From NCBI GenBank assembly GCA_038087875.1, contig CM075993.1:7690001-7750000 (forward strand): a stretch of DNA of 60,000 nt, written 5' to 3'. The DNA is from Malacoraja senta (taxonomy: Eukaryota). This document shows, piece after piece, positions 720-57,211 of this stretch. The notes beneath the pieces were generated by a model. The model was not told the origin of the DNA, made no database searches, and saw nothing but the letters and a program-made list of their open reading frames with translations. The position numbers and the translations under genes were made by a program. Every line of letters begins with the position of its first letter. Position 1 is the stretch's first letter.

Positions 720-1755
720 GTCATAAGGCATAGTAGAATTAGGCCAGTCTACTCTGCCATTCAATCATGGCTGACCTATCTCTCCCTCCATCCCCATTCT
801 CCTGCCTTCCTCCCATAACCTCTGGCACCTGTACTGATCAAGAATATATCTTATCTCTGCATTAAAAATATCCACTGACTTGGCCACCACAGCCTTCTGC
901 GGCAAAGAATTCCACAAATTCACCACTCTGACTAAAGAAATTTCTCCTCATCTGCTTCCTAAAATAATGTCCTTTAATTCTGAGGCTATGACCTCTAGTC
1001 CTAGATTATCCCACTAGTGGAAAGATCTTCTCCACATCCAAGCCTTTCACTATTCTGTATTTTTTTTAAATGAGGTTTCCAATCATTCTTCTAAACGCCA
1101 GCGGGTACAGGCCCAGTGCGGGTAAATGCTCATCATTGGTTAGCCTACTCATTCCTGGGATTATTCTTGTAAACCTCCTCTGGAACTCTCCAGCCAGCAC
1201 ACCATTCCTCAGATATGGTGCCCAAAATTACTCACAATATTCCAAATGCAGTCTTACCAGCTCCTTATAGAGCCTCAACATTACATTCCAGTTTTTGTGT
1301 ACAAGCCCTCTTGAAATAAATGCTAGCATTGAGTTTGCTTTCTTTACTACCAATTAGACTTACAGATTAACTTTTTGGGAATCCTGCACCAGCACTCCCA
1401 AGTCCCTTTGCACCTCCAATTACTGGATTCTCACCTCATTTAGGAAATAGTCTACACCTTAATTCCTACTACCAAAATGCATGACTCCATACTTTGCTAC
1501 AGTATATTCCATCTGCCCATTTCCCAACCTGTCCAAGTCCTTCTGCAGAGTCCCTGTTTTCTCTACGCTACCTGCCCCTCCACCTATTTTCGTATCATTC
1601 GCAAACTTTGCTACAAAGCCTTCAATCCCCTCGTCCAAATCATTAATATACAACGTGAAGAGTAGTGGCCCCAGTATCGACCCTTGCGGAACTCCAACAG
1701 TCACTGGCAGCCAACCAGAAAAAGCTCCATTCATTGCCACCCTTTGTCTTCTGCC
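720..1755 (-). mobile_element. CR1 LINE 3' fragment with RT remnant
   Basis: ORF 1459-1740 reads GVPQGSILGPLLFTLYINDLDEGIEGFVAKFANDTK; typical elasmobranch CR1 3' UTR near 720-830. Confidence 0.9.
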
Positions 1756-2361
1756 ATTACAATGCCCACTTTACCAAATGATCAATTACTTTCCATAACT
1801 CAAGACTAGGGACGAGATTTAACAGGAACCCAAGGGGCTATTTTTTCCACTCAACGTGTTGGTGGGTATATGGAGCGTATTGCCAAAGGAGGTTGTGAGC
1901 AGATACTATAACATTTAAAAAAACACCTGGACAGGTACATGGATAGGAAAGGTTTTAGAGGGATATGGGTCAAGTGCAGGCAAATGGGACTAGCTTGGAT
2001 GGGGCATCTTGGGTTGGCATGGGACAAGTTGGGCCAAATAGTCTATTCTCTACGACTGCACTTCTGCAATGTTTATGCCATTTGCCAAGCTTGTACTTCC
2101 CTATATTTGTACCGACTTGATGCAAGGGTCCCAACACTGTACCCCCAGACATGACTGGTCATTGGTTTCTGGTCAAACTCTCCACTATAATGTCTATTTA
2201 TTGAAGTGAAAATCTACAAAGCAGCTAACATTATAGTAATATTTAGGTAGGTCTAAACTAGTCTACATTAAGCTTCCAGATGAAAAGCAAATAAGGAATG
2301 TGGAATATATAAAGAAATGTTATCTGAAAGCTTAACTATGAAACAGTAATGTGCCCCTTAC

Positions 2362-23534: not shown

Positions 23535-26290
23535 GGCTGCGGATCACCACACACAGACGGATCGCCGACTGCAACACCATGGTCTTTACTGAAACATGGC
23601 TCAACGGCAACATCCCGGACAACGCCATCGAGCTGGAGGGGCGCACTGTCTTCAGGGCCGACAGAACAGCGGAGGACTCCGGTAAGACCAAGGGCGGCGG
23701 ACTGTGCATCTATGTGAATAACACATGGTGCACGGACGTTGTTAGGATTGGTAGTCACTGCTCTGCTGACCTGGAATACCTGATGTTAAAGTGCAGTCCC
23801 TTCTATTTGCCCAGAGAATTCACATCGACTGTTATCACGGCAGTCTATGTACCCCCGGACGCTAATGCCAGGCTAGCAATGGAAGAGCTGCAAGCTGCTA
23901 TCAGCAAACATCTATCTGCTCACCCCGAGGGGGCATTTATTGTTGCGGGTGATTTCAACCATTCCGACCTTAAAACTGTACTCCCCAGGTTCCATCAGCA
24001 TGTTTCCTGCCCAACCAGAGGAAACAATATTCTGGACTTAGTTTACACTAATATTACTGAAGCCTACAAAGCCCTCCCCCTCCCTGGTCAGTCTGACCAC
24101 CTCTCTCTGTTCCTGCTCCCCAAATACACACCTCTGATCAGACGTGTGAAACCTACCACGAGACAGTGAAGGTCTGGCCTGAGGTCTGGCCTGAGGGGGC
24201 TGTCTCTGTTTTACAGCAGCAGTTTCAGCAGACAGACTGGAGTGTTTGCTACTCAGTCCACCTTCAATTCACAAGTGGACATCAACTCATACACCTCAAC
24301 AGTTATGGACTATATAAAATTCTGCACCGATAATGTCGCTACCCACAAAGAAATAAAGACCTTCCCTAACCAGAAGCCGTGGATGAGCAGGGAGGTCAGA
24401 CTCCTACTGAAGGCTCGCGATGCCGCTTTCAGATCTGGCGACGCCGAGGGATACAGCTCATCCAGGGCCAATCTGAAAATGGGAATTAGGAATGCCAAAC
24501 TCAATCACAAACGGCAGATTGAGGAGCACTTCCAAAACAACTCTGACCCCAGGCGCATGTGGCAAGGAATCAAATCCCTTGCCGATTACCAGAAAGTTAA
24601 CACCCCTCCCCCAGACAACGCCACCCTTCCTGACGAACTAAACCATTTCTATGCTCGCTTTGACCGGGATAACAAAACCCCAGCCATCAAAGTTGCTCCA
24701 CCCCCAAATGAACAACCCCTCAGTCTCTCCACCTCTGCTGTACAAGATGCACGGAGCAAGGTGAATGAGCGCAAAGCTGCCGGCCCCGATGGCATCCCTG
24801 GCCGGGTGCTTAGGGCATGTGCTGGACAACTATCCCCAGTCTTTACCGACATTTTCAATCTCTCACTGGCCCAGGGTGTTGTCCCCACTTGCCTCAAGAC
24901 ATCAACCATCGTGCCAGTGCCCAAACAGTCAGCCACAGGGAGCCTCAACGATTTCCGCCCAGTGGCACTCACCCCTGTCATTGCTAAGTGCTTTGAGCGG
25001 CTGATCTTGGCTCACCTCAAAGCCAGCCTCCCCCCCACACTGGACCCCCATCAGTTTGCCTACCGGGCCAACAGGTCTACAGAGGACGCCATATCGGCGG
25101 TCCTACACTCTGCCCTGACCCACCTGGACAACAACAACTCCTACATCAGGTTGCTGTTCATTGATTTCAGCTCCGCTTTTAACACTGTCATCCCCGCCAG
25201 CTTGATCACCAAATTCAGCGGGCTTGGCATCTCCACCTCCCTCTGCAACTGGACACTCGATTTCCTCACCAACAGACCACAGTCTGTTAGGGTCAACAAC
25301 CTCACCTCCTCCACTATAACACTGAACAGGGCTGTGTGCTCAGCCCTCTCATCTACTCCCTCTTCACCCACGACTGCATCCCTAAGTACGGATCCAACGC
25401 CATCATTAAGTTTGCTGACGACACCACGGCGGTAGGACTGTTCAGTGACAATGGTGAGTCAGCCTACAGAGAGGAGGTCCAGCACCTGACAACCTGGTGT
25501 GCCAACAATAACCTCGTCCTCAACTCCAAGAAGACGAAGGAAATTATTGTCGACTTCAGGAAGGTCAGAGGGGGCAGACATACCCCCATCCATATAAACG
25601 GGACTGAGGTGGAGCGCGTCTCCAGCTACAAATTCCTCGGGGTACACATCTCGGAGGATTTGTCCTGGTCCCTCAACACCTCCAAGCTGATCAAAAAGGC
25701 ACAGCAACGCCTTTACTTCCTGAGGAGGCTCAAGAAAGCCCACCTGTCCCCCCAGATCCTGACCAACTTCTACCAGTGTACCATCGAGAGCATCCTGACC
25801 ACCTGCTTCACGGTATGGTACAGCAGCTGCACTGTTGCGGACAGGAAGGCACTACAACGGGTGGTGAAAACCGCGCAGCACATCATCGGTGCCCCGCTCC
25901 CTGCCATGGATGCTCTCCACCGAAAACGGTGTCTGAAACGTGCTGGGAAGATCATTAAAGACCCCTCCCACCCCAACCATGGACTGTTTGCCCTCCTCCC
26001 ATCAGGGAGGCGGTACAGGAGCCTCAGGTCTCATACCAGTAGGATGAGGAACAGCTTCTACAATTATACCGTCGCATTGCTGAACTCGGAGTCCCGCCAA
26101 TAGATTCCTCCGGTCCCTCCGTCCCCATTGTTAATTATTCTGTATTTTTGATTATTCTGTATCGTCTTTTTTTTTTTTTTTTTAATTTCTATATTGCACT
26201 ACTACTACGGACTGACGCAAAACTGCATTTCGTTGTACCCATACTCAGTATTTGTGCAATGACATTAAAGTTGAATTGAATTGAATTGAA
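23535..26290 (+). mobile_element. Rex1/Babar-type non-LTR retrotransposon, 5'-truncated, relatively young
   Basis: APE endonuclease motifs (VFTETWL, GGGLCIYVN, AGDFN, SDH) and RT motifs (DFRPVALT, QFAYR, LFIDFSSAFNT, FADD) in three consecutive ORFs broken by small indels. Ends in a (TTGAA)n tail. Confidence 0.9.
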
Positions 26291-31012: not shown

Positions 31013-34000
31013 TAAATTAAAAGATTCAATTTTCAGAAGAAATGTCAGTATTTTCATCATTCAGAAACCAAACACTGAAAAAGCTGCTCAGAAGCAGAAG
31101 ACTTGGCCAAGACAGACTGGAATTTAAAATTCACCATTTCTGTTGCAGCAGCAGTAAATCATAGATTGCAATAAGTGGCAGATAACAAGTTTAGTCTGTG
31201 ACTGCAAGAAATCAAAACTAAAAATAGATTTTCACTCCATGGATTGCCAGCTGCATCAAAATAAACGTGGTGCTAAAGGCATCCAGCCAGCAATTAGAGC
31301 AAAACACTGCTGGAGAAACTCGGGTCAAGCAGCATCTGTGAGCTGAAATAGTCAGATGTTTTGGCTCAGGACACTTCAAGTAGGGGCAAGATTATTAACA
31401 TCATGTAGAAAAGGTGTTGATCTGGTCACTTCTCATTTCTATTCAATATAGCTCTACAGCAACCTCTTAAATTTAGTTGGTCCTAAAATGCTGCATTATT
31501 GGAATACGTAATTAAAAGTGAACCCAAATATTTTAACTACTGGAAAGAACATCATACTGTTGAGTGAAAAAACACCGACGACTGGAAATACATGAAGCAG
31601 TGAAGGCAAAACTAATTTTCCAATCTCAAATGACTAAAATAATTAAAACTTTAATTCTAGAGGCAATTCAGCGTTACAAATTAAAATCAAGATTCAGAAA
31701 TAAACATGAACAATTATATTTCTGCAACCTTAAACAGCACACTAATTGCATTGTCATTGAACAGCATATGGAATTGTCAGAAAACTTTAGCTAATCGTAA
31801 ACTCAAATCCAGTTGATATGTCAACATCCCTTGGGATGAAATCCAACTACACCACCACTTGAAAATCTAGTATATTAATCAAGATCATCGTGCAAGACAG
31901 TTTTAAATGTTTGATTTGGAGTTGCAACTGAAATCTAGGAACTTATTGTTTGTGTGTATGTTTAACTAACAAGACAGTTGTGTACCAAGGTGGTTGAAAT
32001 TTTCATTTTCTAGCTGGCTGATGACCAAAATGGACCACATGCCACTAATTTAAAGTTAATGCACAAAATTAAGGAATAATAATCGCACTCATACATTAAA
32101 GTATAGTGATAAGTACATTAATTTGCCATTTGTGCTATTCATTCTTCTCAAGCATACCAGCATCAAAATTTGTAACAAACCACTCAATTAAATGGAAATG
32201 TCAGAAATGAGAGGATTTTTGGAAACCAATTACTAAATATTAAATTTAAATGACATTTAAACAGAAATTTAAAACAGTGGCCATCTTATAATTTGAATTG
32301 GCACAATTTTAATTTGTGAAGCACCTTGGAGCAAGACAGTTACACAAGAAACTATTAACATAAGCCTATTAAAGTAGTCTCTTGGCATCAATGACATGCT
32401 TCATTGTAGTTCTGTGGGCTCCAAGGAGACTGATGAAGCTTACGTGGAACCCAGACTGCCAGGGGGTTGTGAGTCGAGGGCAACATATGGGAGGCAGTGC
32501 TTGTTGGGCTTCTGCATGCTGCTCTCAAAGACACAAGGTTCTCCATGTCCATTGTGCCTTTAAAATAAACAGTATCCACAATGTAATCCAGAAAGCAGCT
32601 CTTTAGCCACATGGATAATCCTTGCAGTCTCTTATCTAATACCCTTTAAGGCAATATGTACAACATTTAAGGGGCACTCGTCTGGCCTCCTTTTTTAGAT
32701 GTAGATGAAGCTATCCATGTATTGAAAGTTCATCATGATTTGAATTTCAGTGAGGGTTTGGTCTCTCAAGATCATGTTTTTCTAGAAGTATAAACAAAGA
32801 ACTGTAAATGCTGGAATAAGTCAGCAGGTCAGGCAACATCCCTGGAGAATAATGTTAGGTGACATTTCTGAACTGGATGCTTCTTCAGACATTGTAGGAG
32901 GAAAGAAAGCTTGAAGAGAGAAGAGGCAGGACAGTGGTAGGTAATAGGTGAACATAGGTGAGGGGGTTCAAATAGGTTGGATAAAAACCAAAGATCAAAA
33001 AGGTGTGAGACAAAATAATTTAAGAGCTGTGAATTATGAAGTCAGAGAAAGGAATGTAGGTGGGGGAGGGAAGATATAGACACAAGTCCATGTGGCCAAC
33101 AGAGGGAGAAAGGGGAGGAGTGTTTGTTAGAGGTTACCTAAAATTGGAGAATTCAATGTTGATATTATTGATTGTAAGCTACCCAAGCACTCCAGTTTGC
33201 TTGTGCCCTCATTCTGGCAATGGAGGAGGCCCAAGACAGAAAGTTCAGTGTGGTAAAGGAAGGGGAGCCAAAATTGTTAGCAGCCGAGAGATCCGGTAGG
33301 CCTTGGTTCTCCATGTATATTGTGCCTTTAAAATACATCAAGCACAAGTGTTAAGCGAAATAGTCACCGATATACAGGAGGCCATATTGGGAACACAAGA
33401 TAGACAATAGGAGTAGGACATTTAGCCCTTCGAGCCAGCACCGGCATTCACTGTGATCATGGCTGATCATCCATAATCAATACCCCATTCCTGCCTTCTC
33501 CCCATATCCTGACTCCACTATCTTTATTCTGCTTGGGTAGCTTATCTTTAAGAGTTCTAACTCACTCTTGAAAGCATCCAGACAATTGGCCTCCACTGCC
33601 TTCTGTGGCAGAGAATTCTACAGATTCACAACTCCGCGTGAAAAGGTTTTTTCTCATCTCCGTTCTAAACGGCCTACCTACCAAAACTGCACACAATACT
33701 TCAGGTGCGGTCTCGCTAGGGCCCTGTACAACTGCAGAAGGACCTCTTTGCTCCTATGCTCAACTCTTGTTATGAAGGCCAACATGCCATTTGTATCCTT
33801 CACTGCCTGCTGTACCTGAACAAGATCTTGTTGTATTTCCCCTTTTCCCAACATTACACCATTCAGATAATGATCTGCCTTCCTGTTTTTGCCACCAAAG
33901 TGGATAACCTCACATTTATCCACAGTAAACTGCATCTGCCATGCATCTGCCCACTCACCCAACTTGCTCAAGTCACCCTGCATCCTCATAGCATCCTCCT

Positions 34001-34168
34001 CAGTTCACTCTGCCACCCAGCTTTGTGTCATCTGCAAATTTGCTAATGTTACTTTTAATCCCTTCATTTAAATCATTAATGTATATTGTAAATAGCTGTG
34101 GTCCCAGCACCAAACCTTGCGATACCCCACTAGTCACTGCCTGCCATTCTAAAAGGGACCTGTTAATC

Positions 34169-35747
34169 CAGGGGTTGGCAACCTACGGCCCCCGGCCCAA
34201 TTGCGGCCCATAGCCCGAAATCATCCAGCTCACAGGCGTATTTTTCTGTATTCATCCGGTCCGCAGACCTCCGTCATCTCCTGTACCTCCCGGGCCCGAG
34301 GCTGCAGCGCGTTGATGCGAGGATGCAAGGAGGCCTGCGCTATCGGCCGCAATGGGGGAGCAGCCAAGCGCCAACAGAAACCCAGTCCTTCTCTCCAGGT
34401 AGACAAAAATGCTGGAGAAACTCAGCGGGTGAGGCAGCGTCTATGGAGCAAAGGAATAGGTGACGTTTCGGGTTGAGACCCTTCTTCAGACTGATGTGGG
34501 GGGGCAGGAAGAAGGAAGAGGTGGAGACAGTAGGCTGTGGGAGAGCTGGGAAGGAGAGGAGGAGGGAGAAAGCAAGGACTACCTGAAATTGGAGAAGTCA
34601 ATGTTCATACCGCTGGGGTGTAAACTACCCAAGCGAAATATGAGGGGCTGCTCCTCCAATTTGCAGTGAGACTCACTCTGACCATGGAGGCAGCCCAGGA
34701 CAGAAAGGTCGGATTCGGAATGGGAGGGGGAGTTGAAGTGCCGAGTCACCGGGAGATCAGGTTGGTTAATGCAAACTGTGCGGAGGTGTTGGGCAAAGCG
34801 ATTGCCAAGCCTGTGATTGGTCTCGCCGATGTAGAGCAGGTGACACCTAGAGCAGCGGATGCAATAGATGAGGTTGGAGGTGGTGCAGGTGAACCTCTGC
34901 CTCACCTGGAAAGACTGCTTGGGTCCGTGGATGGAGTTGAGGGGGGAGGTAAAGCGACAAGTTCAGCATTTCCTGTGGTTACAAGGGAAAGTACCAGGGG
35001 AGGGGGTGGTTTGGGTGGGAAGGGAAGAATTGACCAGGGAGTTACGTTAGGGAGCGGTTGCTGCGGAAAGCCAAAAGGGGAGGAGATGGGAAGATGTGGC
35101 CAGTGGTGGGATCCCGTTGGAGGTGGCGAAAATGTCGGAGGATTTTCTGCTGTATGTGACGGCTGGTAGAGTGGCAGGTGAGGACAAGGGGGACTCTGTC
35201 CTTGTTACGAGTGGGGGGGATGGGGAGTGAGAGCGGAGCTACAGGATATACAGGAGACCCTGGTGAGAGCCTCATCTATAGTCGAAGAGGGGAACCCCCG
35301 TTCCCTAAAGAAAGAGGACATCTCCGATGCCCTGGTTTGGAACACCTCATCCTGGGTGCAGATGCGGCATAGACGGAGGAATTGGGAGTAAGGGGGGGGG
35401 GGGGGGGGGGAAGAGAGATAAGAGTCCTTACAGGAAGCAGGGTGGGAAGAAGTGTAGTCCAGATAGCCATGGGAGTCAGTGGGTTTATGAGTTACTGCAG
35501 CATTTTGTGTCTATTCACAAGTACTCTTTGTATCTCTGTGGAATATAGACCCCATGAAGGCGTTGTATGGAATTATATAACTGGTTTGGACTGATGGTGG
35601 GATGGGAGAGGTGGAGTGTCTGCTGTCCATATGCTTTCTGTAAGAGCAGTCGATTTACTGCCATTGTTTATGTGAATGCGTGATAGATGTGGCCCGCCAT
35701 CCACTCACGGACATGCGTCCTGGCACCTATAAGGTTGCCGACCCCTG
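34169..35747. mobile_element. hAT (Charlie-like) non-autonomous DNA transposon, itself interrupted by a Penelope element
   Basis: TIRs CAGGGGTTGGCAACCT / AGGTTGCCGACCCCTG and 8-bp TSD TGTTAATC / CGTTAATC. Confidence 0.85.
34398..35514 (-). mobile_element. Penelope-like element 3' part (GIY-YIG endonuclease) with terminal repeat
   Basis: ORF 34579-34905 FTCTTSNLIYCIRCSRCHLLYIGETNHRLGNRFAQH...HFN...LEEQPLIFRLGSLHPSGMN; terminal repeat with hammerhead-like core at 34462-34489. Confidence 0.9.
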
Positions 35748-37421
35748 CGTTAATCCCTTCTGTTTCCTGTCTGCCAACCAATTTTCTATCTATGTCAGTA
35801 CCCTACCACCAATACCATGTGCTCTAATTTTTCCCACTAATCTATGTGGGACCTGATCAAATGCTTTCTGAAAGACCAGGTACACTACATCCACTGGCTT
35901 TCCCTTGTCCATTTTCACAGTTACATCCTCAAAAAATTCCAGAAGATTAGTCAAGCATGATTTCCCCTTTGTAAATCCATGCTGACTTGGACCGATCCTG
36001 ATACTACTATCCAAATGTGCCGCTATTTCATCTTTTATAATTGACTCCAGCATCTTCCCCACCGCCGATGTCAGACTAACTGATCTATAATTCTGTTTTC
36101 TCTCTCCTGCTTTTCTTAAAAAGTGGGATAACATTAGCTACCCTCCAATCCACAAGAACTGATCGTGAATCTACAGAACATTGAAAAATGATCACAAATG
36201 GGCCACTTCCTTAAGTACCCTGGGATGCAGACCATCAGGTCCTGGTGATTTATCAGCCTTCAGTCCCACCAGTCTACCCAATATCATTTCATGCCTAATG
36301 TGAATTTCCTTCAGTTCCTCCGTCACCCTAGATCCTCTGGCTACCAGTACTTCAGGGAGATTGTTTGTGTCTTCCTGAGTGAAGATGGATCCAAAGTACC
36401 TGTTCAACTCGTATGCAGTAGATAAGTATAGAAGAGGTGCATGTGAACCTCAGTCTCACCTGGAAGAACTGTTGTGATCCCAAGATGGAGACAAGGGAGA
36501 AGGATAGGATCAGTTGTTACATCTCCAGCAATTGCAGGGGAAAGTACTGGGAAGGTGGTGCTTTGGATGGGATGAGTGAACCAAGGAGTTGAGTGAGCAG
36601 TCTCTGTGAAAGGCAGAAAGGGGTGGAGATGGGAAGATGCACCCGCTAGTGAGATCACATTGGATATGATGGAAGTGTCTGAGAATGACGTGTTGGATAT
36701 TGAGGTTGGTGGAGTGAATTGAGAGGACCAGGGGAACTCTCCTTATCTTGTCGGGGGAGGGGGGGGTTGCAGGAAGAGCAGAACTAAGGGACAGAGGAGC
36801 TAGGAGATGCAGTTGAGGGACCCATCTATGACAGCGGGGGGGGCGGAGATCCATATTTACAGGATATCCTAGAATAGAAAGCCTCTTGGGAGCAGATGCG
36901 TTAGAGATGGAATTAAGAATAGGGGATGGTGTCTTTGCAAGAGGCAGGGTGGAAGTGTAGTCCAGATAATTGAGAGAGTTGGTAAGTTTGTAGTAGGTCA
37001 GTCGAGAGTCAGCCCTCTCATGGGGATAGATTGAGAAAGGGAAGAGTTGTACCGCCAATTTCAACCTCCTTGGTTAAAAAGATGCAATTAAGCAGGTACG
37101 TTTATCAACTTTGACCCAGCTGGAAAAAATAATCTAACACACCAAGGTATAGGTGTACAATCATCTCGACTCCGATTAGAGAAATTTGGGTAGGGATTAT
37201 AAGTATTAAGGAAATATTCGGTGCAATTTTCATTAATGCTAGAAAATAGTAAACTCACTCAAAATGTTGTGCTTAAAGTCATTAAATAAAAGCTGGTTTA
37301 GGGGGGCAAAATTAGCTCCCAATGGTCTAATGCCACCTTAAACTATTATCCTCTTAGTTCCCACGTCCAAGCTTTATTAATTATTTACTCACAGGTACAA
37401 GGTGTTGACAATGCCGTCAAG

Positions 37422-49729: not shown

Positions 49730-50272
49730 TCTTTACAAACACGATGCCTGGATTAGAGGGCATTAGCTGCAAGGAGATTGGACGGACTTGGTATGTTTTC
49801 GTCAGAATGCCAGAGGTTGTGGGGAGATCTGATAGAATTATGATAGACTCGGCTTGTACACGTTGGAATTCAGAAGACTGAGGGGGGATCTTATAGAAAC
49901 TTACAAAATTCTAAAGGGGTTGGACAGGCTAGATGCAGGAAGATTATTCCCGATGTTGGGGAAGTCCAGAACTAGGGGTCACAGTTTAAGGATAAGAGGG
50001 AAGACTTTTAGGACCGAGATGAGGAAATCATTTTTTACACAGAGAGTGGTGAATCTGTGGAATTCTCTGCCACAGAAGGTAGTTGAGGCCAGTTCATTGG
50101 CTATATTTAAGAGGGAGTTAGATGTGGCCCTTGTGGCTAAAGGGATCAGGGGGTATGGAGAGAAGGCAGGGATGGGATACTGAGTTGGATGATCAGCCAT
50201 GATCATATCAAATGGCGGTGCAGGCTCGAAGGGCCAAATGGCCTACTCCTGCACCTATTTTCTATGTTTCTA
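49730..50272 (+). mobile_element. CR1 3' end(s)
   Basis: LEFRRLRGDLIETYKILKG...TRGHSLRI...FFTQRVVNLWNSLP followed by 3' UTR and TTTCTATG tail. Confidence 0.92.
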
Positions 50273-53939: not shown

Positions 53940-54388
53940 TAAGTTCACAGGTTATAGGAGTAGAATTAGGCCATTCGGCCCATCGAGTCCACTCCACCAT
54001 TCAATCATGGCTGATCTCTGCCCCCTAATCCTATTTTCCTGCCTTCTCCCCATAACCCTTGACACCCGTTCTAATCAAGAATTTGTCTATCTCTGCCTTA
54101 AAAATATCCACTGACTTGTCCTCCACAGCCCTCTGTGGCAATGAGTTCCACAGATTAACTACCCTTTGGCTAAAGAAGTTCCTCCTCACCTCCTTTCTAA
54201 AAGAGCGCCCTTTAATTCTGAGGCAACGACCTCTGGTCCAAGACTCTCCCACCAGTGGAAACATCCTCTCCACATCCACTCCATCAATGCCGTTCATTAT
54301 TTTGTACGTTTCAATGAGGTCCCCCCTCAATCTTCTAAACTCCAACGAGTAGAGGCCCAGTGCCATCAAACGCTCATCATATGCTAAT
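53940..54388 (-). mobile_element. CR1 3' end
   Basis: LGLYSLEFRRLRGDLIETYKI...RRNFFSQRVVNLWNSLP plus 3' UTR. Confidence 0.92.
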
Positions 54389-55429: not shown

Positions 55430-55725
55430 GTGTAGAAAACAAGTTCAGAGATACAGTGTAGAAACAGGCTTTTCGGCCCAGCGAATCCATGCCGACCATC
55501 AGTGTACCAGTGGGACACTAGTTCTATGTCCTACACACTAGGGGCAATTTACAGAAACCAATTATCCTACAAACCTGCCCGTCTTTGGAGCGTGGGAGCA
55601 AACCGGAGCACCCACGCAGTCACAGGGAGGACATGCAAACTCCATACAGATAGCACGTAGTCAGGATCGTACTCCGGTCTCTGGCGCCGTGAGGCAGCAA
55701 CTCTACCGCTGTGCCACACCGTGAC
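55430..55725 (-). mobile_element. HE1/V-SINE-type tRNA SINE
   Basis: Reverse complement of the V-SINE head, V-domain and tail. Confidence 0.8.
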
Positions 55726-56158
55726 ACTATCCTATATCTCAATGACTAACATAGATAACATTGCAATTATGGCAATGCAGTTCTGAGAGATTCACTGGTG
55801 CAAGTTGCCAAATGCTTTTCCAAAATCTCAGCACTTCAGAAATGCTTAAACGGTTGAGAAGTTATGTTAGGATGTCCCGTAGTGAGGAAGGGCAGGAATA
55901 CTTCTCTGAGGTAACAGCATGTTGGCTTTTGGTGTGAGAGGGATGAAGCGTGCCAAAATGTTGACTAATCTTCAGGAGAAACATTGCTGCGTTTGTCATA
56001 GTGCCGTACGGCATAAAAACAAACCTTTAAGCCAAACAAGTCCAATCCAAAGATCATGGATGGTGAATGTGTGGAATTCACAGCCACAGACGGCTGTGGA
56101 GGCCAAGTCATTGGGTATTGTTAAGGCGGAGATGAACAGATTCTTGAATAGTACGGGT

Positions 56159-56212
56159 GGGGTGGAAGATTGCAACCTTCACGTGGTCCGCGCTGTTTCG
56201 ACTAATGCAATC
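56159..56212 (+). ncRNA. Minimal HDV-like self-cleaving ribozyme motif
   Basis: P1 GGGGUGG/CCGCGCU (G1-U wobble, one G:G mismatch), P2 GAUUGCA/UGCAAUC, P3 ACC/GGU, L3 UUCACGU, single G for P1.1, vestigial P4 UUUCGA, then catalytic-position C and UAA. Confidence 0.78.
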
Positions 56213-56299
56213 AACTCGACGTGCACAAACGGAAGATCAAATATAACAAGTTGTCCAACAGCTTTAGGCTGTGCACGCCACACGAAAGAAGAAGAAGAA
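56159..56299 (+). mobile_element. 141-bp non-autonomous retroposon with HDV-like ribozyme head and (GAA)n tail
   Basis: Flanked by the 13-bp direct repeat GAATAGTACGGGT (56146-56158 and 56300-56312). Interrupts a CR1 3' fragment and ends in CACGAAAGAAGAAGAAGAA. Confidence 0.88.
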
Positions 56300-56582
56300 G
56301 AATAGTACGGGTTCAAGGGGTTATGTGGAGAAGGCAGGAGAATGGGATTGAGAGGGAGAAATAGATCAGCCATGATTGAATGGCGGAGTAGACTTGATGG
56401 GCCAAATGGCCTAATTCCGCTCCTATGACTTATGAATTTATTTTACATTAACCTCATTTTATTCTCCCCACATTCCTGTCGGCATGGTCACGTTGGGCCG
56501 AAGGGCCTGTTTCCATGCCATGCAACTCTATGACTCTGGAGTGTGAGGGACATTGTTCACTGGCCCGGGTTCAGCAGCTTGC

Positions 56583-56895
56583 CGGCACGGTGGCGCAGCG
56601 GTAGAGTTGCTGCCTTACAGCGCTTGCAGTGCCGGAGACCCGTGCGCAATCTCGACTACGTGTGCTGTCTGTGCGGAGTTTGTACGTTCTCCCTGTGACC
56701 CACGTGGGTTTTCTCCGAGATCTTCGGTTTCCTCCCACACTCCAAAGACGTACAGGTATGTAGGTTAATAGACTTGGTTTATGTGTAAATTGTTCCTGGT
56801 GTGTGTAGGATAGTGTTAATGTGCGGGGATCGCTGGTCAGTGCGGACTCGGTGGGCCGAAGGGCCTTTTTTAGAGCTGTATCTCTGAACTACACT
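56583..56895 (+). mobile_element. HE1/V-SINE-type tRNA SINE
   Basis: GGCACGGTGGCGCAGCGGTAGAG head, V-domain GGAGTTTGTACGTTCTCCCTGTGAC...GGTTTCCTCCCACA and CR1-like tail GGGCCGAAGGGCC. Confidence 0.88.
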
Positions 56896-57211
56896 AAACG
56901 GAACAATCTTGACGCTTCATCATAACCCAGGATAGTGTAATGTCATTCACTACCACAAACACTAATTCCCTTCACCACCAATGCATCAGGGGCTGCCCTG
57001 AGCACCTTCCATATCGTACTCCACAATTGCTCAGCCAGGCTACTCCGAGCAGCTACTTCAGTCTGAAGAAGGGTCTCAACCCGAATCGTCGACAATTCCT
57101 TCTCTCCAGAGATGCTGCCCGTCCCGCTGAGTTACTCCAGCATTTTGTGTCCACCTCCGATTTAATCCAGCATCTGCAATTCTCTCTTACACAATACTCC
57201 AAGCGGCACAT

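Follow-up and report, generated by a model that had tools for sequence, protein, structure and literature searches.

The window, the whole 60-kb stretch of DNA analysed here, carries near its right end a 141-bp insert (56159-56299) that ends in four GAA units and is bracketed on both sides by a 13-bp target-site duplication (TSD). We removed the insert and one TSD in a script and matched the rejoined host repeat by BLAST against the fetched loci. The host repeat ran uninterrupted across the insertion site in 30 of the 46 matches, and this contiguity indicates that the element boundaries are true. The first 54 nucleotides have the layout of an HDV-like ribozyme (HDV, hepatitis delta virus), the same layout as that found at the 5' end of the parent LINE described below. 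The individual features are as follows:

56146..56158, + strand: left TSD, 13 bp, exact copy of 56300-56312
56159..56212, + strand: 54-nt HDV-like ribozyme motif without P4; G56159 is G1, the 5' end of the element and the predicted cleavage site
56159..56165, + strand: P1 5' strand, partner 56188-56194, with a G1-U wobble and a G56161:G56192 mismatch private to the window copy
56166..56167, + strand: J1/2, 2 nt, the first base varying between subfamilies
56168..56174, + strand: P2 5' strand, seven Watson-Crick pairs with 56206-56212
56175..56187, + strand: P3 of 3 bp (strands 56175-77 and 56185-87) and the 7-nt L3 (56178-84)
56195..56201, + strand: G37, U38, then a 5-nt loop where P4 would be; the sister LINE family has a 6-bp P4 here
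56202..56205, + strand: J4/2, with the putative catalytic C56202, a variable base and two A
56213..56230, + strand: remainder of the LINE 5' UTR
56231..56250, + strand: subfamily-specific middle in place of the original deletion junction, unlike the LINE and subfamilies A and D; borders approximate
56251..56287, + strand: LINE 3' end, with the last codons, the stop codon (56265-56267) and a 20-nt 3' UTR
56288..56299, + strand: (GAA)4 tail, its length varying among copies
56300..56312, + strand: right TSD, exact repeat of the left TSD

An earlier sequence-only reading had given the same coordinates for the TSD, P1, P2, P3, L3, G56195 and C56202, and all of them hold on re-reading, as does its single G:G mismatch in P1 (56161/56192). 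What it called a 6-nt P4 remnant needs a partial correction: a P4 helix is indeed absent, and the first of these bases (U38, 56196) belongs after G37, as in the Rfam CPEB3 consensus, so that the loop comprises 5 nt. The predicted P1.1 partner of G56195 is C56180. The window copy departs from its own subfamily at 56192, 56244 and 56261. Position 56192 is C in 29/29 other best-matching copies, as had been expected, and this base gives those copies a full P1 with the G1-U wobble; the window copy is probably weakened by its central P1 mismatch. Elsewhere, the window contains LINE reading-frame fragments, CR1-like and other, at 23573-26088 (+), 33480-36416 (-), 800-1785 (-), 49842-50180 and 54037-54387. 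Beside the element, at ~55600-55725 and ~56580-56900, lie repeats that we take to be tRNA-SINE-like. By their likeness, the flanking repeats suggest that the host is a vertebrate, probably a cartilaginous fish.

The HDV core was searched with a structural descriptor on both strands of the window, using as controls a changed catalytic C and dinucleotide shuffles. The descriptor matched once, at this site, and gave no match in the window when the catalytic C was set to A, G or T and none in 360 dinucleotide shuffles of other regions, which argues that the motif did not arise by chance. Rfam returned no HDV family match for the window copy. In the comparison with HDV-like and CPEB3 models that the sequence-only reading had proposed, RF02682 (HDV-F-prausnitzii) aligns exactly nt 1-54 of another copy, L002, to model positions 1-74, at 16 bits against a gathering score of 44, and the CPEB3 model did not match the 54-nt motif in the window copy or in L002. 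Because the existing models contain P4, reaching a gathering score is no defining property of the fold. RNAfold found only P2 (z-score +1.19) and is uninformative here, since it cannot form pseudoknots. Read directly, P1 has 7/7 pairs in copy L002 and locus L256 and 6/7 in the window copy, and P2, the 3-bp P3 and the 7-nt L3 follow in nested double-pseudoknot order. J4/2 begins with the putative catalytic C followed by N-R-A, and P1.1 would join a C of L3 to the G after P1'. The L3 is identical to that of the Rfam CPEB3 consensus, as the sequence-only reading had stated.

Conservation across copies follows this architecture. C44 (C56202) is present in 119 of 126 copies, in agreement with the constancy expected of it, A46 and A47 in 126/126, C22 in 124/127 and G37 in 122/127, and the base after the catalytic C is T in 94, G in 22, A in 9 and C in 1 of 126 copies. 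Five subfamily groups (n = 6, 18, 15, 26 and 12) vary at only 3 of the 54 ribozyme positions, namely nt 8 in J1/2, nt 32 (a U-A versus a U-G pair) and nt 45 (the free base that follows the catalytic C), none of which breaks a pair or touches L3 or C44; across the remaining 77 columns, 8 substitutions and 2 gap columns separate the two groups best suited to comparison. At C44-G45, the one CpG site that this comparison covers, loss of C occurred in 163 copies and loss of G in 339, that is, half as commonly for C. Symmetric decay would give equal losses, which implies that source copies tolerated a change of G45 and not of C44. The short-element family contains no compensatory two-sided change and only one one-sided change, and the within-family evidence for selection on the fold is modest. 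L3 variants are rarer in sense than in antisense RNA reads (C24T, 5.6 vs 12.4%; G25A, 3.4 vs 6.6%). We do not count this deficit as evidence, because the old-subfamily marker G32A is likewise rarer in sense reads (15.8 vs 37.4%) and the reads are not independent.

To estimate the size of the family, we searched the 1.94-Gb genome with two non-overlapping exact 25-nt 3' patterns, which gave 688 and 2,837 matches and set a floor of at least 3,525 copies. For the survey of 5' ends, copies were picked by their 3' end only, as the first 30 loci per pattern in genome order, with one duplicated locus dropped. In the young subfamily, 26/29 copies start at nt 1 and 24/29 have a TSD of 10-18 bp; in the larger subfamily, 27/29 start within nt 1-3 (22 at nt 1) and 25/29 have a TSD. 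The prediction of many TSD-flanked copies starting at the same G was therefore correct. Copies lie 2-6% from their group consensus, a figure biased low by exact-pattern sampling. Each of 20 public runs from 12 studies with eight organism labels contained 9-10 of 10 sampled words, indicating that the family is common to several species. ARAGORN found no tRNA gene in the element, consistent with the earlier remark that it has no tRNA head, and by eye there is only a partial A/B-box likeness. Its head is a LINE 5' UTR and not a small-RNA-derived head with Pol III boxes, as in SINEs of the tRNA, 5S or 7SL type. Locus L054 has a young copy sitting in reverse orientation within the 3' end of an older member of the family.

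The autonomous LINE sharing both ends that had been predicted is present in the same genome. A pattern built for older 3' variants matched 294 times. We read 30 of these loci: in 17 the upstream sequence continues as that of a LINE reading frame, another 12 are short elements headed by the ribozyme, and 1 is a stub; translation of the 17 revealed a zinc-knuckle-like motif and a stop codon within the last 40 nt of the element. Among 18 longer LINE loci that were fetched, L232 spans ~3.1 kb, and in it ribozyme nt 8-72 lie immediately in front of an endonuclease-reverse transcriptase (EN-RT) frame matching residues 22-1012 of protein P0002. With a 5' UTR pattern we obtained 39 matches and read 30 of them, 9 being LINE 5' ends and 21 a second short derivative with another junction (subfamily D). 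In locus L256 the sequence begins at G1 and continues into the beginning of the ORF. The short element is thus composed of the LINE 5' UTR (ribozyme plus ~18 nt) joined to the last ~40 nt of the LINE (last codons and 20-nt 3' UTR) and (GAA)n. It shares both ends with one LINE, has no ORF and carries variable TSDs, which are the features of a bipartite non-autonomous LINE (SIDE). The earlier picture of a SINE-like element borrowing a LINE's reverse transcriptase stands as far as non-autonomy and a partner LINE are concerned, and is better replaced by that of an internal-deletion derivative (SIDE) of that LINE. In subfamily A the 5' UTR is joined to the start codon and in subfamily D the junction is different, so that such derivatives arose at least twice, and the window subfamily changed its middle after the deletion event. 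The short element did not evolve the compact ribozyme itself but received it from the LINE.

The parent is a ~3.1-kb single-ORF LINE with an APE-type endonuclease and a reverse transcriptase. Its closest whole protein is P0002 (1019 aa; 73% identical over 378 aa), and Pfam identified RVT_1, two endonuclease families and a weak zf-RVT in P0002 and the parent C-terminus, and no RNase H in either. We prefer to assign it to the Vingi type, which had been named as a possible source and whose architecture (single ORF, no RNase H) the parent resembles. RTE elements are likewise single-ORF LINEs without RNase H, and our tentative choice of Vingi over RTE follows sequence motifs. The protein matches of the parent included no named Vingi, Ingi or RTE protein, so that the clade call draws on architecture and motifs; the best outside match in the genome was Nimb-like, and PDB matches comprised only L1, R2 and group II reverse transcriptases. 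The (GAA)n tail, once offered as a hint to the clade, is not diagnostic, because Nimb-like LINEs of the same genome end alike. Among the 150 listed of 160 matches there was no intact parent ORF, and the longest open frame of the family (681 aa) had a stop within the matched region, which suggests that the short-element family is probably no longer mobile in this genome.

Several other partner candidates were set aside. Nimb-like LINE families with a (GAA)n tail do not have the ends of the element, a PF14529 search (30 loci and 20 further regions) yielded Nimb-like, CR1-like and other LINEs, none with those ends, and 17/17 matches of a pattern excluding short-element sequence after the 5' UTR were short-element variants. 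The Nimb-like LINEs (L139, L140, L156, L155) have an ORF1, a long open ORF2 of up to 1277 aa, an RNase H-like region, (GAA)n tails and many intact-looking copies. An eel protein, P0001, is 76% identical to the last 180 aa of the partner LINE, compared with 37-61% for other relatives, and horizontal transfer is a possible source of this similarity.

Stronger evidence for selection on the fold comes from a sister LINE family of this genome, 45-47% identical to the parent in amino-acid sequence, which has at its 5' end its own HDV-like motif with a different P1, P2 and P3 and with the 6-bp P4. This motif gave 61 pattern matches, 12 of the 20 that we read opening with the G-run of P1; its alignment to the Rfam CPEB3 model covers the whole model at 21.8 bits (cut-off 35). 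The sister family, also of Vingi type (L275:51-124 and L271-L290; ORFs in L239 and L240), has open frames of up to 886 aa and a TAAA-type tail, and looks younger than the partner family. We also collected 80 metagenome loci of related LINEs, 9 of them with usable upstream DNA. An HDV-like core was found in 4 of these 9 (L302:54-130, L322:~2143, L346:~2684 and L349:2796-2865) with a descriptor relaxed after stricter versions gave 1/10 and 0/7, the motifs having first been spotted by eye, and two of the four are without a full P1 5' strand. Locus L349 shows a two-pair P1.1 as in HDV. Taken together, LINE families and metagenome loci display four different Watson-Crick P3 helices, and their differing helices still pair, a covariation read by descriptor and not from counted pairs, since MAFFT left J4/2 and P2' unaligned between families. 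The helix covariation that had been predicted is accordingly found between LINE families, and not within the short-element family.

To examine RNA 5' ends, we aligned four raw-read runs from 2026 to copy L009, which has unique flanks, using 1-5% of each run; the run organism carries the element and may not be the window species, and runs X21 and X22 come from one single-cell study. In X21 and X22, 1855 and 1609 reads had loose ends before G1, with a median length of 31 nt. The consensus of these ends reproduces the 30-nt template-switch oligo in full, its GGG included (agreement 0.72 in X21 and 0.68 in X22), the oligo sequence being that in Table 2 of PMC9338959. An estimated ~60% of boundary reads in these two runs carry the oligo, which in most boundary reads is joined directly to G1, the majority junction having no extra G. 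Depth over nt 1-10 was 1774:467 sense to antisense in X21 and 1599:470 in X22, a sense bias of ~3.5:1. In the bulk oligo-dT runs X23 and X24, 1112 and 1055 reads run through G1 into varied flanks (agreement 0.43 and 0.39), and neither run has a start pile at G1. As these libraries are unstranded, the flank-crossing reads imply that many transcripts are uncut or antisense. The oligo junctions and the flank-crossing reads together indicate that G1-starting RNAs and read-through transcripts both exist, the former being present in cells or arising in library preparation. These data fit cleavage and initiation alike, as well as cleavage in the cell and cleavage during library making. Poly(A) loose ends at the start of the tail may represent oligo-dT priming on GAA.

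Considering the anatomy of the element, its ancestry, its TSDs and the G1 starts seen in both DNA and RNA, we interpret it, with a probability of roughly 0.78, as a bipartite internal-deletion retroposon of a Vingi-type LINE that would depend on read-through, self-cleavage at G1 and trans-mobilisation via the shared 3' end. Host promoters would transcribe the copies by read-through, the P4-less HDV-like ribozyme would cut 5' of G1 via C44 and leave an RNA whose 5' end is defined, and the EN-RT of the parent LINE would recognise the shared 3' end and copy this RNA by target-primed reverse transcription (TPRT). Given an element of only ~130 nt, most copies would be full length according to this proposal. 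The points that weigh against it are the sub-cut-off Rfam scores, the flank-crossing bulk reads and the 2-nt J1/2; in another ribozyme, according to PMC4908430, a J1/2 of 0 nt gave no activity and one of 1 nt little. The sense bias and the discrete G1 ends also fit a transcription start at G1, with the first ~70 nt serving as an internal promoter and the ribozyme being secondary, weak or vestigial. An extra G at the junction is a cap signature, and the median loose end of 31 nt, one above the oligo length, leaves room for it in some reads. We nevertheless consider this alternative unlikely: the majority junction lacks the extra G, the start matches the HDV cut site to the base, the LINE families show helix covariation, for which a DNA promoter would have no use, and neither ARAGORN nor the partial A/B-box likeness points to a tRNA-type promoter. 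Pr77 of L1Tc/NARTc is described as promoter and ribozyme at once (PMC4035085), and the two functions may coexist here.

A fold that is real and catalytically dead or slow, with 5' ends set passively by a 5'-3' exonuclease blocked at P1, is more improbable still. It would accommodate the many read-through reads in bulk RNA, the R2 ribozyme fold is credited with protection from 5' exonucleases in a review (PMC13708176), and a short J1/2 can impair activity (PMC4908430); however, C44 and J4/2 are kept in all families, G45 is lost in excess over C44, and natural P4-less ribozymes are active in vitro, as reported in 10.1101/2023.06.13.544163. We assign the smallest chance to a library artefact, in which strand invasion at the G-run would produce the template-switch junctions and short length would account for the uniform genomic 5' ends. 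The junctions do come from one study only, and the element begins with four G that could pair with the oligo end, but the GGG of the oligo stands beside all four genomic G's, which strand invasion would be expected to overlap. In addition, no other loose end carried the oligo among the 24 listed of 479 rows, and the uniform G1 start in the LINE and in two deletion lineages still calls for a defined RNA end.

The combination of a ribozyme head and a LINE tail is already known from R2 SIDEs and NARTc. The R2 SIDEs of Drosophila (Eickbush and Eickbush 2012, PMC3414825) similarly join the 5' ribozyme and the 3' end of their parent LINE by internal deletion and use TPRT in trans; they are specific to 28S rDNA, rare, dependent on a restriction-like endonuclease and equipped with a larger ribozyme, whereas the present family is dispersed in thousands of copies and has an APE-type parent. 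NARTc/L1Tc, RIME/ingi and the SIDERs of trypanosomatids (PMC4035085) are comparable as dispersed short derivatives of Ingi-group LINEs with a 5' 77-nt HDV-like ribozyme, although L1Tc has an RNase H, a ribozyme with P4 and, in Pr77, a demonstrated promoter; our family has no RNase H in its parent, no P4 and a vertebrate host. Vingi LINEs, as presented in PMC5786205 and PMC13708176, resemble the parent in their compact single ORF with APE and RT and no RNase H, and in spawning bipartite derivatives. Minimal HDV-like or theta ribozymes share the nested double pseudoknot without P4, the catalytic C first in J4/2 and the cut at G1, which is predicted here, and have been described from gut phages and a small number of bacteria, in many cases behind tRNAs (10.1101/2023.06.13.544163). 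Our motif instead heads a eukaryotic retrotransposon, is not phage-borne and does not adjoin a tRNA 3' end, and the searches of human, mouse and protist genomes described in that study found no P4-less ribozyme. The mammalian CPEB3 ribozyme (Rfam RF00622) has the same L3, the G-U after P1' and the terminal G1 pair; it is a single intronic copy with P4, in contrast to a multicopy motif without it. Some metazoan LINEs and SINEs use HDV-like ribozymes (PMC6765202, review), so that a short element headed by a ribozyme is in itself no novelty.

In our literature search, neither this element nor a ribozyme on Vingi turned up; repeat databases and supplements were outside its scope, and earlier cataloguing is possible. 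Within the searchable literature, three aspects appear to be new: that a eukaryote has a ribozyme lacking P4, that Vingi-type LINEs carry a ribozyme at all, and reads placing RNA 5' ends on G1 of a dispersed vertebrate element. PMC5786205 names Vingi as a source of bipartite derivatives without including it among its six ribozyme-bearing clades, and leaves open why only RTE, Ingi, Vingi and R2 spawn such derivatives. A bolder proposal, to which we give even odds, is that a catalytically active P4-less HDV-like ribozyme, of a kind described so far only from phages and bacteria, is present in several thousand copies in a vertebrate genome and cuts host read-through transcripts at G1 in living cells, and that Vingi LINEs in general carry HDV-like ribozymes at their 5' ends, a trait as yet unreported, one lineage having lost P4. 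If this is true, Vingi would be the seventh ribozyme-bearing LINE clade, the family would amount to a mutational scan of a minimal ribozyme made by nature, which RNA data could read out, and native Vingi 5' UTRs in RNA gene-writing constructs would be predicted to self-cleave. According to PMC13708176, Vingi-1 5' UTRs are kept in therapeutic driver and donor RNAs, so that a self-cleaving head would matter for their design. With thousands of copies carrying natural point changes in both orientations, it becomes testable which copies cut, whether sense insertions are selected against in introns and UTRs, and why only some clades spawn bipartite derivatives.

Finally, positions 56220-56227 are complementary to 56270-56277 (8 bp), segments of the LINE 5' UTR and 3' UTR that are 3 kb apart in the LINE. 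Their pairing closes a stem in the short element and reaches 10-11 bp in the largest subfamily. Copies of the LINE with an inverted 5' part are frequent (L223, L228, L231, L238, L242, L244, L245, L250, L262 and L267), and TSD-like repeats bracket three of them (L228, L238 and L250). In 4 of the 18 longer LINE loci the inverted piece is the ribozyme end, stopping at ~nt 72-80, shortly beyond the stretch that is complementary to the 3' end, which suggests that the frequent 5' inversion results from twin priming favoured by 5'-3' pairing.
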